Shown here piece after piece: positions 27,246 to 31,441 of a DNA stretch of 64,000 nt. The notes under the pieces are model-generated. The model was not told the origin of the DNA. It was given only the letters and a program-made list of their open reading frames with translations, and did no database searches. Positions within the stretch are counted from its first letter, which is position 1, and the number at the start of each line of letters is the position of its first letter. Source of the stretch: Candidatus Micrarchaeota archaeon. GTDB taxonomy: Archaea > Micrarchaeota > Micrarchaeia > Micrarchaeales > CABMGC01. The position numbers were made by a program, and so were the translations under genes. Location: the NCBI GenBank assembly GCA_021851065.1, contig JAJZJQ010000001.1:9640-73639 (forward strand). Reading direction: 5' to 3'.

Positions 27246-28652
27246 CTATAGCGAAAGGACAAGAAATGGAAGCAGTCCCAGTGCTATGGATGAGCATAGT
27301 AGCAGCATTCCGGAAACCATGACGTCAGTCGAGAGCGTACGGTACGGCTCAGTGGCTTCCGACGAGTTTATGAACATCCTCTCTATTACCCAGAAAAGCG
27401 CCGCGCCCATGAGGAATATTCCTGCAAGAGGCACTATGCCAGTCACTCCGAATGCAATTGCTGCGCCTATGAATACGAGTATGTCTGCTATGAATGCTGC
27501 AGTTAGAGGCAGGCCTATGGCCCCGAACACGCCTATTATGAACAGATAAGAGAGCCCGGCGAAGTTCTTGATCACGCCTTTTATCTTGCTGATCTCCAGG
27601 GTGCCGTATAACTCGTCAAGGGTACCTGCAACGAGAAAGAGCAGTGATATCGCAAGGCCATGGCTGAGCATGAAATATACGGCGCCTGTTGTGCCAACTG
27701 AATTTAGCGCGCTAAGGCCGACGCCTACGATGCCCATGTCAACTATGCTGGTGTATGCTATAAGCCTCTTGACATTTGATTGCACAAGGCACACTATACC
27801 AGAATATATTGCAGAGAACAGGAAAATGAGAAGCAGGTATGGTGCATAATGCGAGGCTATTGGCAGCATCAGATAGGTGAGCAGCAGCAGGTAGCCTCCG
27901 AACTTTAGCAGAACTCCTGCAAGTATCATGCTTCCTGTAGTTGGCGCCTCAGTATGAGCGTCAGGCAGCCAGGTATGCAGGGGGAAGACTGGCATCTTTA
28001 TCATGAAAGACACGATGAATAGCAGCATAACAAGCAGCTGGGTACGGGCGCTTATGCTGGCAGATGAAGCTATTATTGCGCTTATGCTAAAGGTATGGGG
28101 AACGGTGGAGCTATACAGCAGCATTATCCCTATGAGCAGCAGCAGACTTGATATTGCCGAGTATATTATGAACTTTATGCCGGCATACCTCCGGTTATAT
28201 CCGCCGTACATGAATATTATGAAGAACATCACTACTTCAGCAAGCTCCCAGAATATGTACAGTATGAAGAGGTTTGATGCGGCAAACACGCCAAGAGATG
28301 ACGCCTCTGCTATGAGGAATATGAAATTGTATATCCTCTGCCTCTCACCCATGAAGTATTTGCCGACAATAGAAGCGGCAAGGAATACAATAGAAGCCAT
28401 CAGCATCAGTACGAGCGTTGGGGCAGTCGCGTAGAGGCTGAAATCCAGGTTTAGCTGCGGAATGTAGCCAAAGCTCAGCGACAGAGAGCCGATGCCGTAT
28501 TCGTACGAAGCCGCAATCGATATCAGCGTGAGTGCAAATGTTATCGCAGAAGCCGCAAGGGCTATGGAGTGGGCGTGCTTGCTATCGATTACCAGCACCG
28601 CGGCTGCTGCTGCGAAAGGGACCAGTATGAGTGCGAGAAGTACCAGCATCAT
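27246..28652 (-). CDS. NuoM/ND4/MrpD-type antiporter-like (proton-conducting) membrane subunit, orphan
   Basis: 468 aa; FWELAEV (TM5 Glu), IKMPVFPLHTWLPDAHTEAPTTGSMILAGVLLKFGGY (TM7/TM8 Lys); ATGA overlap with the upstream AAA gene. Confidence 0.85.
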   Translation of the reverse strand: MMLVLLALILVPFAAAAAVLVIDSKHAHSIALAASAITFALTLISIAASYEYGIGSLSLSFGYIPQLNLDFSLYATAPTLVLMLMASIVFLAASIVGKYFMGERQRIYNFIFLIAEASSLGVFAASNLFILYIFWELAEVVMFFIIFMYGGYNRRYAGIKFIIYSAISSLLLLIGIMLLYSSTVPHTFSISAIIASSASISARTQLLVMLLFIVSFMIKMPVFPLHTWLPDAHTEAPTTGSMILAGVLLKFGGYLLLLTYLMLPIASHYAPYLLLIFLFSAIYSGIVCLVQSNVKRLIAYTSIVDMGIVGVGLSALNSVGTTGAVYFMLSHGLAISLLFLVAGTLDELYGTLEISKIKGVIKNFAGLSYLFIIGVFGAIGLPLTAAFIADILVFIGAAIAFGVTGIVPLAGIFLMGAALFWVIERMFINSSEATEPYRTLSTDVMVSGMLLLCSSIALGLLPFLVLSL

Positions 28653-31441
28653 CTACCACCATATAGAGAGATGAAGCTCATATAGCTTCCCATAGTATTG
28701 GATGGCGCTGAAGGCTTTATCGCATGTATTATCTCAAGCATGTCGTCCATCGTTATCCTCTTCTCCTTCGATGAGGAAAGGTCGGCCTCAAGCGCCCCCA
28801 TCTTCGCTTCCCTGCAAATGTTGGCGATATCGGCACCAGTGTACCCTTCTGTCTGTGAGGCGAGCCTCTCGAAGTCCATGTCGCCGTCAAGAGGCACCTT
28901 CTTGAGGTTCTCGCGGAATATGCTGGCCCTGTCCTGGCTTCCTGGAGGAGGCACGAATATGAATTTGTCTACCCTTCCTGGCCTTATTATCGCCGTATCA
29001 AGCATGTCTGGCCTGTTGGTTGCGCCCACCATGACTATGCCGCTTGCATCCTTCATGCCATCCAGCTCCTGCAGGAACTCGCTTGTTATCTGGATGTAGA
29101 GCTGGCCGGAGTCGCTCCTGCTGGGCAGCAGCGCATCTATCTCGTCTATGAATATTATGCATGGCGCATTCTCCCTGGCCCTGTTGAACGCCTCGCGTAT
29201 AGTCGCTAGCGCATTCTCGAACCCATTCTTGGATATCTCGGCCCCAGAGAGCGTTATGAGTTTTACGCCGTCAAGCTCGTTTGCCACTGCCCTTATTAGC
29301 ATGGTCTTTCCTGTTCCTGGAGGACCGAACAGGAGTATGCCGCGTATATCCTTTACGTCATATTTCTTCATGAGATTTGGGTGCAATATTGGTATTTCTA
29401 TGGCTTCGTAGAGTGCTTTCTTGGCCTTCTCCAGACCGACCACGTCCGATACGCGCACCGTATCCTCGTTCTCAGCGAACCTCTCAGGGTGGGCGCGGCG
29501 CTCGTAGTCCGTCTTGAACTGGTTGTACTTGTCTATGGAAGCCAGCGACGTGGATGGTTTCGTGACATTTATGACATCCAGCATGTCCTGCAGCGTTATC
29601 TTGAGAACCTTGTGCTGCCGTATCGCCTCCTCAGCAACCTGCCTTGCAGCCTCATCGCATACATTCTTTATATCTGCGCCGCTGTACCGGCTGGTGACGC
29701 CTGCCAGCTTCTGGTAATCCAGGCTGTCGTCCGCAGGGAAGCGGCCCATATGGTGCTCGAATATTTTTGCCCTTCCGGACCTGTCCGGCAGCTGCATGTA
29801 CATTATTTTATCGAATCTTCCTGGCCTCATTATGCTTTCGTCGAGAAGCTGTGGAGAGTTGGTCGAACCGACGATGACCACCCCGTCTACCCTCTGGAAC
29901 CCGTCCATCTCACTTAGCAGCGTAGTCAATACCTGCCGGCTTATGTCGCTTTCCTGTGCTTCCCGCTTGGAAGCTATGCCATCGATCTCGTCGAAGAATA
30001 GCACGGCAGGAGTGTGCTTGCGTGCTGTCTCAAAGACCTTTGATAGCGCCTGCGCACTCTCCCCCTGAAAAGGGGATATTAGCGATGATGTCTTTACGTA
30101 AAAAAATCTGGCGCGTATCTCGTTTGCTATGGCACGCATCATCAGGGTCTTTCCTGTCCCTGGAGGACCGAACATGAGTATGCCCTTGGCTGGCTTGACG
30201 TTGTAAGCTCCAGCTATCTCCCTGTGCTCTATAGGGGCAAGTATGGCCTCACGCAGCTCCTTTTTGGTCTGGTCGTAATTTGCCACATCGTCGAGGGTCT
30301 CCCTACTGCCACTTGTGATGTCCTCGAATGCCTCGCCGAACTTTCCCAGAAAGTCGCGCTTCATCACGTCAAGCGCCCTGGCTACTTCGATGTTGGAGCT
30401 TTCGAGCGCGAACACCACAATGGTTGCTAGCGGGAAACTTATCATCGACAGCAGATTTGGCTGGTAGCCGCTGAACAGGGCCATGCCGGCATACGCTGCA
30501 AGTATTACGAATCCGTATAGACTGGCCTCTGCGCCCTTGAACGCCGATCTGCTCTTTATCACGTAATTTACCATTGCAAACACGGTTATGAGCCATACGA
30601 AGAGTTGTATCAGGGTAAGCTCTAGGCTGTAGGCAACAGATGCGATAGCCATCCCAAAAGCAGCGAAGATCTGATCGGCTACATTGAAGCTGAACATCCT
30701 GCCCATAGCAGCGCCAATGCCAGGAGGAAACTGCAATGCTGTTGGAGCAGGCATGGATGGAGAGAGGTACTGAAGCGCTAAACCGGATGGGAAAGAGCTG
30801 TGGGCAATTGTTGCGTTGTATACGATTGGGGCGCTGATGCTGATTCCGGTGAGCCCTGCCAGCATTGGCACCATCAGCAGTATCACTGCGGTAGACACTA
30901 TGGATCTGCGGTAGCCTATGAAAAGCACGCCTATTATGAAGACAGGTATCTCTAGCAGAGAGCCCAGATACGACAATGGCAGCATTATCATTACATATAT
31001 GAATGTTATTGTACGGTAGTGCCTGTATCCAAGTATCAGGGATATGCTGATGAACAGCGTGAAGATCCAGGCGAACAGGGGAGCCTGGTAGATGAACATT
31101 AGCAGGGTCTCAAACAGCATTGCCATTAGCCCGCCTAGTGGCAGCACAAGCGTTATTACGAATGTCACTATTACAAGGGGTATGAGTACTATTGGAGGGA
31201 AGAGGGGGAATGCTATGGCCACGCTTATGATGGCAAAGGCTATTGCAAGAGCGTCGGGGAAGTTCTTGCGGCTGGAGAAATCCTTCAGCAGGTCTTTTGC
31301 TATGAAGTAGAACATGGGCAGGTATGACGCACGGCTGTGCACAGGCTGGCTGCCACCCACAGGCCTCTTGAATGAAACTTCAGATTTGCCATCCACAACT
31401 TGTTTCTTCTGGGTGTGCTTGTAGGCCATAGGCAGTATCAC
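28649..31441 (-). CDS. polytopic-membrane tandem AAA+ ATPase (CDC48/VAT-like D1-D2 with the N domain replaced by a ~370-aa multi-TM domain)
   Basis: Two Walker A GPPGTGKT; Walker B LFFDEID and IIFIDEID; SRH GSTNSPQLLDESIMRPGRFD and GATNRPDMLDTAIIRPGRVD; N-terminal third almost entirely hydrophobic; start is GTG 31441 or ATG 31429. Confidence 0.85.
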   Translation of the reverse strand: MILPMAYKHTQKKQVVDGKSEVSFKRPVGGSQPVHSRASYLPMFYFIAKDLLKDFSSRKNFPDALAIAFAIISVAIAFPLFPPIVLIPLVIVTFVITLVLPLGGLMAMLFETLLMFIYQAPLFAWIFTLFISISLILGYRHYRTITFIYVMIMLPLSYLGSLLEIPVFIIGVLFIGYRRSIVSTAVILLMVPMLAGLTGISISAPIVYNATIAHSSFPSGLALQYLSPSMPAPTALQFPPGIGAAMGRMFSFNVADQIFAAFGMAIASVAYSLELTLIQLFVWLITVFAMVNYVIKSRSAFKGAEASLYGFVILAAYAGMALFSGYQPNLLSMISFPLATIVVFALESSNIEVARALDVMKRDFLGKFGEAFEDITSGSRETLDDVANYDQTKKELREAILAPIEHREIAGAYNVKPAKGILMFGPPGTGKTLMMRAIANEIRARFFYVKTSSLISPFQGESAQALSKVFETARKHTPAVLFFDEIDGIASKREAQESDISRQVLTTLLSEMDGFQRVDGVVIVGSTNSPQLLDESIMRPGRFDKIMYMQLPDRSGRAKIFEHHMGRFPADDSLDYQKLAGVTSRYSGADIKNVCDEAARQVAEEAIRQHKVLKITLQDMLDVINVTKPSTSLASIDKYNQFKTDYERRAHPERFAENEDTVRVSDVVGLEKAKKALYEAIEIPILHPNLMKKYDVKDIRGILLFGPPGTGKTMLIRAVANELDGVKLITLSGAEISKNGFENALATIREAFNRARENAPCIIFIDEIDALLPSRSDSGQLYIQITSEFLQELDGMKDASGIVMVGATNRPDMLDTAIIRPGRVDKFIFVPPPGSQDRASIFRENLKKVPLDGDMDFERLASQTEGYTGADIANICREAKMGALEADLSSSKEKRITMDDMLEIIHAIKPSAPSNTMGSYMSFISLYGGR

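Follow-up and report, generated by a model that had tools for sequence, protein, structure and literature searches.

Locus and reading frame

The window analyzed here is the whole stretch of 64,000 nucleotides between positions 9,640 and 73,639 of contig JAJZJQ010000001.1 (assembly GCA_021851065.1), from a genome of the Micrarchaeota (G000; 1.13 Mb, 87.5% complete). Its minus strand bears a gene for a protein, designated TM-AAA in the following, in which a CDC48/VAT-like tandem of AAA+ modules is combined with a large predicted integral membrane domain replacing the N domain. This architecture, already proposed in an initial annotation made from the nucleotide sequence, is supported by two PF00004 modules and about eight transmembrane (TM) crossings.

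28649..31429, minus strand: TM-AAA gene, 926 aa from the ATG at 31429, stop codon at 28649-28651

The initial annotation had let the gene start at 31441, where an in-frame GTG lies four codons upstream of the ATG and would result in a protein of 930 aa. As full-length homologs begin at the position of the ATG, the latter is likely the true start and the coordinate has been corrected to 31429. Residue numbering follows the database protein P0001 with its Met at window position 31429, which is 99.8% identical to the translation, the two differing residues being located at the C-terminus. All of the 120 top homologs are full length, covering 96-100% of the query, and the gene is intact in each of 41 related genomes searched. 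Consequently, a fusion or frameshift artefact, the caveat attached to the initial annotation, is ruled out and TM-AAA represents a genuine single open reading frame.

The AAA+ modules

In a Pfam search, TM-AAA shows two complete copies of the AAA module (PF00004), with AAA_lid_3 (E = 2.2e-78). From Pfam, motifs and PDB relatives, the following elements can be deduced (SRH, second region of homology).

29465..30313, minus strand: D1 AAA+ module, about aa 374-655
30146-30169, minus strand: D1 Walker A, GPPGTGKT, aa 421
29981-30001, minus strand: D1 Walker B, LFFDEID, aa 477
29810-29869, minus strand: D1 SRH, GSTNSPQLLDESIMRPGRFD, from aa 521, Arg fingers R535/R538
Y/F454-x-G456: D1 pore loop-1, aromatic, conserved across 120 homologs
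28652..29464, minus strand: D2 AAA+ module, aa 656-926
29303-29326, minus strand: D2 Walker A, GPPGTGKT, aa 702
29135-29158, minus strand: D2 Walker B, IIFIDEID, aa 758
28967-29026, minus strand: D2 SRH, GATNRPDMLDTAIIRPGRVD, from aa 802, Arg fingers R816/R819

Every motif listed in the initial annotation, that is, both Walker A, both Walker B and both SRH sequences, is present in the translation of 28649-31441 (minus strand), and across the same 120 homologs the Walker motifs and all four Arg fingers (R535/R538, R816/R819) are invariant. The D2 position matching the aromatic pore loop-1 of D1 is variable in this set, and the C-terminal tail YxxFxSxYGxR (window about 28652-28700) is conserved. 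A C-terminal HbYX motif for proteasome docking is absent from TM-AAA and the 120 homologs, so docking to the proteasome is not indicated. The further statement that neither a protease nor a soluble N-terminal domain is present holds as well, with Pfam finding nothing but AAA and AAA_lid_3 and with the M41 protease motif HExxH lacking in TM-AAA.

Among PDB entries, p97/VCP, archaeal VAT and Cdc48 are the nearest to the D1-D2 part by sequence. In NCBIfam, the models for CDC48 (TIGR01243), PAN and FtsH_fam rank highest, all scoring under their own cutoffs (465.6 bits at a trusted cutoff of 802.65 for TIGR01243 and 393.3 at a cutoff of 600 for FtsH_fam). The Walker A and B motifs, the Arg fingers, the aromatic D1 pore loop and the affiliation with the p97/VCP/VAT/Cdc48 lineage, the members of which thread polypeptides, imply by analogy that threading of polypeptides, starting at the D1 face, is to be expected for TM-AAA, too.

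Topology and conservation of the membrane domain

In contrast to the AAA+ part, a Pfam search of aa 1-370 did not yield any domain, neither in TM-AAA nor in 112 homologs. With the 112-sequence family alignment as input, AlphaFold2 modeling of aa 1-380 reached a pLDDT (predicted local distance difference test) of 89.7 and a pTM (predicted template modeling score) of 0.84 and, combined with hydropathy and topology analyses, delimits the following predicted parts.

31262..31429, minus strand: N-terminal tail and amphipathic helix, aa 1-56, cytoplasmic, K/R-rich (AlphaFold2 model, topology)
30398..31261, minus strand: polytopic membrane domain, aa 57-344, about eight TM crossings (hydropathy, AlphaFold2 model, topology)
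30398..31083, minus strand: six-helix core, aa 117-344, with a putative likeness to the S-component fold of energy-coupling factor (ECF) transporters
30671..30847, minus strand: proline-rich loop, aa 195-253, 59 residues between core helices 3 and 4, extracytoplasmic
30311..30376, minus strand: linker helix, aa 352-373, cytoplasmic, amphipathic, leading straight into D1 (AlphaFold2 model)

The tail proper (aa 1-38) is disordered, K/R-rich and cytoplasmic, with low pLDDT at about residues 1-30, and is followed by the amphipathic helix at 39-52. According to model and hydropathy, the membrane is crossed at residues 57-73, 79-95, 117-152, 156-171, 173-194, 254-292, 298-320 and 326-344, while an interfacial helix is formed by residues 97-115 and short helices are found within the proline-rich loop. 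The previous count by eye of 8-10 TM segments is thus close to the about eight crossings plus one amphipathic and one interfacial helix now assigned by hydropathy, model and topology, but the description of the first ~370 residues as almost wholly hydrophobic had to be revised, given the polar, K/R-rich stretch at aa 1-56 and the proline-rich loop at aa 195-253.

Over the 112 homologs, K+R amount to 14.3 per 100 residues in the segments proposed to lie inside versus 2.9 in the outside loops, by which an N-in/C-in topology is strongly supported. By this positive-inside rule, the AAA rings would be cytoplasmic, the loop 195-253 would be exposed at the extracytoplasmic side and the membrane domain would be placed on the D1 face. 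Several polar or charged residues within the TM helices (D59, Q115, E160, R175, Q275, W279, R294, and E343) are invariant or nearly so in the 112-sequence alignment, a conservation pattern that appears unlike that of a plain anchor. Overall, the membrane domain is conserved at least as well as the AAA part, with a mean column identity of 43%.

The best structural matches of aa 117-344 in the PDB, as retrieved with VIA-align, are S-components of ECF transporters, and the ESM Atlas points in the same direction; ThiT, BioY, FolT, RibU, PanT, CbiM, and BtuM were named for this resemblance, which the initial annotation had missed and which came up only in the follow-up analysis. Foldseek did not return a significant match of the membrane domain in the PDB, leaving VIA-align and the ESM Atlas as the methods pointing to S-components. 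Likewise, a sequence match to a PDB chain or Pfam family was not found, even with a hidden Markov model profile of the 112 sequences, and none of the 112 members hit S-component families such as BioY, Thia_YuaJ and ECF_trnsprt at E<=10. Hence, the likeness is a structural resemblance of the modeled core that does not imply homology, although the shared topology is probably real. When mapped onto S-components, aa 117-344 correspond to the 6-TM core in the same N-in/C-in orientation and the loop 195-253 takes the place of loop L3, which in S-components shapes the substrate site.

Distribution and variants of the family

In total, 1538 homologs of TM-AAA were found, all of full length. Those with assigned names belong to Candidatus Micrarchaeota, Micrarchaeia or Micrarchaeales, besides contigs from a few Marsarchaeota metagenome-assembled genomes (MAGs) and one bacterial contig assigned to Vulcanimicrobiota. 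The Marsarchaeota homologs (L004/L005, Thermoproteota lineage, accompanied by a NuoM-like gene as in the window) and the Vulcanimicrobiota homolog (L002) are likely due to horizontal transfer or binning error. In a scan of GTDB species representatives, TM-AAA was only detected in Micrarchaeota MAGs, apart from one spurious partial match. The sequencing runs of the relatives comprise DNA only, derived from acid-mine-drainage metagenomes.

A single full-length copy is encoded in each of the 41 related genomes of the same order (41/41), except that G029 has two (contig C23). Besides TM-AAA, all these genomes encode a canonical 720-aa CDC48 with soluble N domain as well as PAN-like proteins. The D1 and D2 modules of TM-AAA share 33-42% identity with the modules of the canonical CDC48, without consistent pairing of D1 with D1. 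These identity values and the inconsistent best-matching canonical module rule out a recent duplicate of the genome's own CDC48, and the coexistence of the soluble enzyme in the same genomes marks TM-AAA as a dedicated paralog. On the basis of these sequence comparisons, it is an ancient paralog of CDC48 and a lineage-specific core gene of Micrarchaeota, a status that had escaped the initial annotation.

Among 71 representatives obtained by clustering at 50% identity, the membrane domain is only ever found fused to AAA, either in double-AAA proteins (~900 aa), in single-AAA proteins (584-652 aa) or in intein-bearing forms. A standalone membrane domain, for which a survey had been proposed initially, was not found in this set, the short matches being contig-edge fragments; in P0125 (389 aa), for example, broken AAA pieces follow. 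Single-AAA variants retaining the membrane domain are P0126 (L017:4606-6564), P0128, P0129, P0132, and P0163; the AAA module of P0126 is D1-like and a HIT gene is located upstream. In P0155, P0174, and P0181, inteins (Intein_splicing/LAGLIDADG) interrupt the protein directly behind the Walker A motif of D1.

Gene neighborhood and the NuoM-like partner

Immediately downstream of TM-AAA, the window encodes a second membrane protein, the significance of which had likewise only become apparent in the follow-up analysis.

27246..28652, minus strand: orphan NuoM-like antiporter subunit, 468 aa (Proton_antipo_M; NDH_I_M TIGR01972 above cutoff)

The start of this gene and the stop of TM-AAA share 4 nt (ATGA), and the two genes are therefore probably translationally coupled. 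The NuoM-like protein belongs to a distinct orthologous group, the members of which are 48-57% identical to one another and 26-33% identical to the NuoM that belongs to complex I in the same lineage, and retains charged residues at the membrane positions of complex I NuoM (E136, K219, H331, D390, and E424). It is encoded in 39 of the 41 related genomes, adjacent or coupled to TM-AAA at loci L001, L004/L005, L009/L010, and L014-L016 and at a distance of 1-2 kb at L006-L008, while it is not adjacent in family f3. Its absence from the near-complete, single-contig genome G032, which possesses TM-AAA, indicates that the association is frequent but not obligate.

At L006-L008, a gene cluster for complex I (Nuo) lies just downstream of TM-AAA in tail-to-tail arrangement, and a ribosomal protein cluster lies just upstream. 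In the window, a divergent orphan paralog of V/A-ATPase subunit I (31661-33244, minus strand, 527 aa) is encoded directly upstream of TM-AAA on the same strand. It is 40% identical to the canonical subunit I of the genome, and its position beside TM-AAA is found in the window only and not kept at other loci. Beyond the NuoM-like gene, a 313-aa membrane protein not belonging to any Pfam or NCBIfam family (26303-27244, plus strand) and a DUF2070 protein (24469-26292, plus strand) are encoded, and their order beside the TM-AAA/NuoM-like pair is the same in the window and at L001.

Possible function

Taken together, TM-AAA is probably an ATP-driven machine of a new kind, moving proteins or molecules across the membrane. 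For its mode of action, a hexameric CDC48-type motor working as membrane-integral protein translocase or dislocase is proposed, to which a probability of roughly 35% can be ascribed (hexamer, pore orientation and substrate class being deduced). As expected from membership in the classic AAA clade, six protomers would form a hexameric double-ring unfoldase, each of them anchored by its domain of ~8 TM crossings, and the six membrane domains would probably assemble into a platform right above the central pore, on its D1 entry side. CDC48/p97 takes substrates into its pore on the D1 (N-domain) face and lets them out at D2. With the membrane domain located on this very face, the motor of TM-AAA would be oriented for pulling from the membrane into the cytoplasm, either extracting polypeptides from the bilayer or drawing them from outside through the ring of membrane domains. 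A single polypeptide would then do the job of FtsH or of Hrd1 plus Cdc48. Due to its size, the invariant embedded polar residues and a core resembling a substrate-binding S-component fold, the membrane domain is probably more than an anchor and probably recognizes or channels the substrate.

Three roles had been suggested initially, namely a membrane-protein extractase, a translocon-associated motor and an ATP-driven gating device. The architecture favors a motor drawing its substrate into the pore from the side of the membrane, with the extractase and translocase options fitting best. In line with this, the short linker helix of the model would join the membrane domain directly to D1, and the architecture is kept across Micrarchaeota, in 41/41 genomes and 1538 homologs. 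Several points weigh against a protein translocase or dislocase. A core like that of S-components would rather speak for binding of a small molecule than for a protein channel. When the NuoM-like partner and the membrane domain were supplied as alignments for complex prediction, the score was 0.00, which is evidence neither for nor against binding. Moreover, as neither a protease domain nor HbYX is present, an extracted substrate could be handed over to the proteasome or simply be released. Finally, the genome encodes two Lon_C proteins (LonB-like Lon protease), which may already take care of quality control of membrane proteins, so that this task would not be left to TM-AAA alone.

Among the alternatives, an ATP-driven small-molecule transporter is the one to be considered first, albeit unlikely. 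Here, a ligand such as a vitamin or cofactor would be bound by the S-component-like core close to the outside, and the AAA+ rings would reorient the core for releasing the ligand inside, energizing it in a manner comparable to the movement of S-components by EcfA/EcfT. Besides the structural matches in the PDB and ESM Atlas, the loop at the L3 place and conserved aromatic and polar residues in the core are consistent with this function. In addition, EcfT/CbiQ, BioY or an ECF_trnsprt S-component were not found in the 87.5% complete genome, a gap that TM-AAA could fill in a reduced-genome DPANN archaeon which must import cofactors.

Less probable still, the membrane domain might be a mere anchor tethering a CDC48-like unfoldase that acts on cytoplasmic proteins near the membrane, as Pex15 does with Pex1/6. 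The D1-D2 part is indeed a normal CDC48-type motor and membrane tethering is common among AAA+ proteins. For anchoring, however, one or two helices suffice, in contrast to the eight crossings, invariant buried polar residues and conserved extracytoplasmic loop of TM-AAA, the membrane domain of which is maintained at least as well as its AAA part (mean column identity of 43%). Similarly improbable is a primary active transporter of a new kind, in which a CDC48-type unfoldase would have taken over an S-component-like domain for substrate binding and, by ATP-driven threading or pulling at its rings, would import a cofactor or, most strikingly, host-derived polypeptides, possibly together with the NuoM-like partner.

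Very unlikely, finally, is an ion-pumping or energy-coupling complex with the NuoM-like protein, in which the work of ATP hydrolysis would pass via the membrane domain to antiporter-like half-channels, or in reverse. The distinctness of this partner, its presence in 39/41 genomes, the frequent translational coupling and the retained complex I charged residues are suggestive, but G032 has TM-AAA without it, it is not adjacent in family f3, the complex prediction gives no verdict, and we know of no AAA+ protein driving an antiporter module. An import motor for outside polypeptides such as host proteins, running through a channel of ringed membrane domains, would agree with the predicted pore orientation, by which substrate would move from the side of the membrane toward D2, and with conservation across the whole order of a host-dependent DPANN lineage, yet it is equally unlikely, Micrarchaeota not being known to import proteins.

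Micrarchaeota are host-dependent DPANN archaea of acid-mine-drainage communities, and with Mia14 growing together with Cuniculiplasma a culturable system exists (PMC5498576), by which the question of TM-AAA function is testable. As a core gene of these host-dependent organisms, TM-AAA may bear on macromolecule acquisition or on upkeep of the membrane proteome in ultrasmall episymbionts.

Comparison with known systems

To our knowledge, membrane AAA+ motors described thus far combine a single AAA module with one or two TM helices (FtsH, Msp1, Bcs1, and LonB) or are plastid hetero-complexes (Ycf2-FtsHi). If the proposed architecture is true, TM-AAA would couple a polypeptide-threading motor to the membrane in a novel manner, a CDC48-type D1-D2 unfoldase being mounted on an 8-TM platform similar to an S-component, by which proteins or ligands could be moved across the membrane or extracted from it. 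A characterized equivalent, of which none was known at the time of the initial annotation, was not found in the family libraries Pfam and NCBIfam, and literature searches on Micrarchaeota AAA/Cdc48, on S-components with AAA+ and on archaeal membrane-anchored AAA proteins did not reveal any description of the TM-AAA family.

With CDC48/p97/VAT, TM-AAA shares the tandem D1-D2 modules of the classic clade and the same Walker, SRH and Arg finger motifs. In contrast, the soluble N domain (double-psi barrel and beta-clam) is absent and replaced by the 8-TM domain, the C-terminal HbYX is lacking, and TM-AAA is not orthologous to the canonical 720-aa CDC48 of this genome and its relatives. Like FtsH, it is an integral membrane AAA+ motor with a pore predicted to face the membrane and may extract membrane proteins. 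Membership in the FtsH family, however, is ruled out by eight instead of two TM crossings, two AAA modules instead of one, the missing M41 HExxH protease and the score below the FtsH_fam cutoff, in agreement with the distinction drawn initially. Archaeal LonB differs in having its TM helices within the AAA domain and an S16 Lon protease domain; as the TM helices of TM-AAA are N-terminal and Lon_C is absent from it, the Lon_C proteins of the genome being separate, this assignment can be rejected, too. Msp1/ATAD1 and Bcs1 are also membrane-anchored AAA+ proteins, extracting (Msp1) or translocating (Bcs1) proteins, but each has one TM helix, one AAA module and no polytopic domain, so eight TM crossings and two AAA modules exclude TM-AAA from these families.

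The existence of membrane-integral AAA import machines is illustrated by the Ycf2-FtsHi motor of chloroplasts, a large membrane-integrated AAA+ complex proposed to drive protein translocation, according to the passage of PMC10500165 that cites Kikuchi et al. (2018, Plant Cell). This plastid complex consists of FtsH-derived single-AAA subunits and Ycf2 without a D1-D2 CDC48-type module, and is likened to TM-AAA in its mode of working only. S-components of ECF transporters are the best structural matches of the modeled 6-TM core at aa 117-344 and may thus be similar to it in fold, with the extracytoplasmic loop at the L3 position, whereas sequence similarity is lacking and additional N-terminal TM helices are present in TM-AAA. 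Moreover, S-components pair with EcfT and the ABC ATPases EcfA/A', whereas the corresponding core of TM-AAA, in a genome without detected EcfT, is fused directly to an AAA+ motor.

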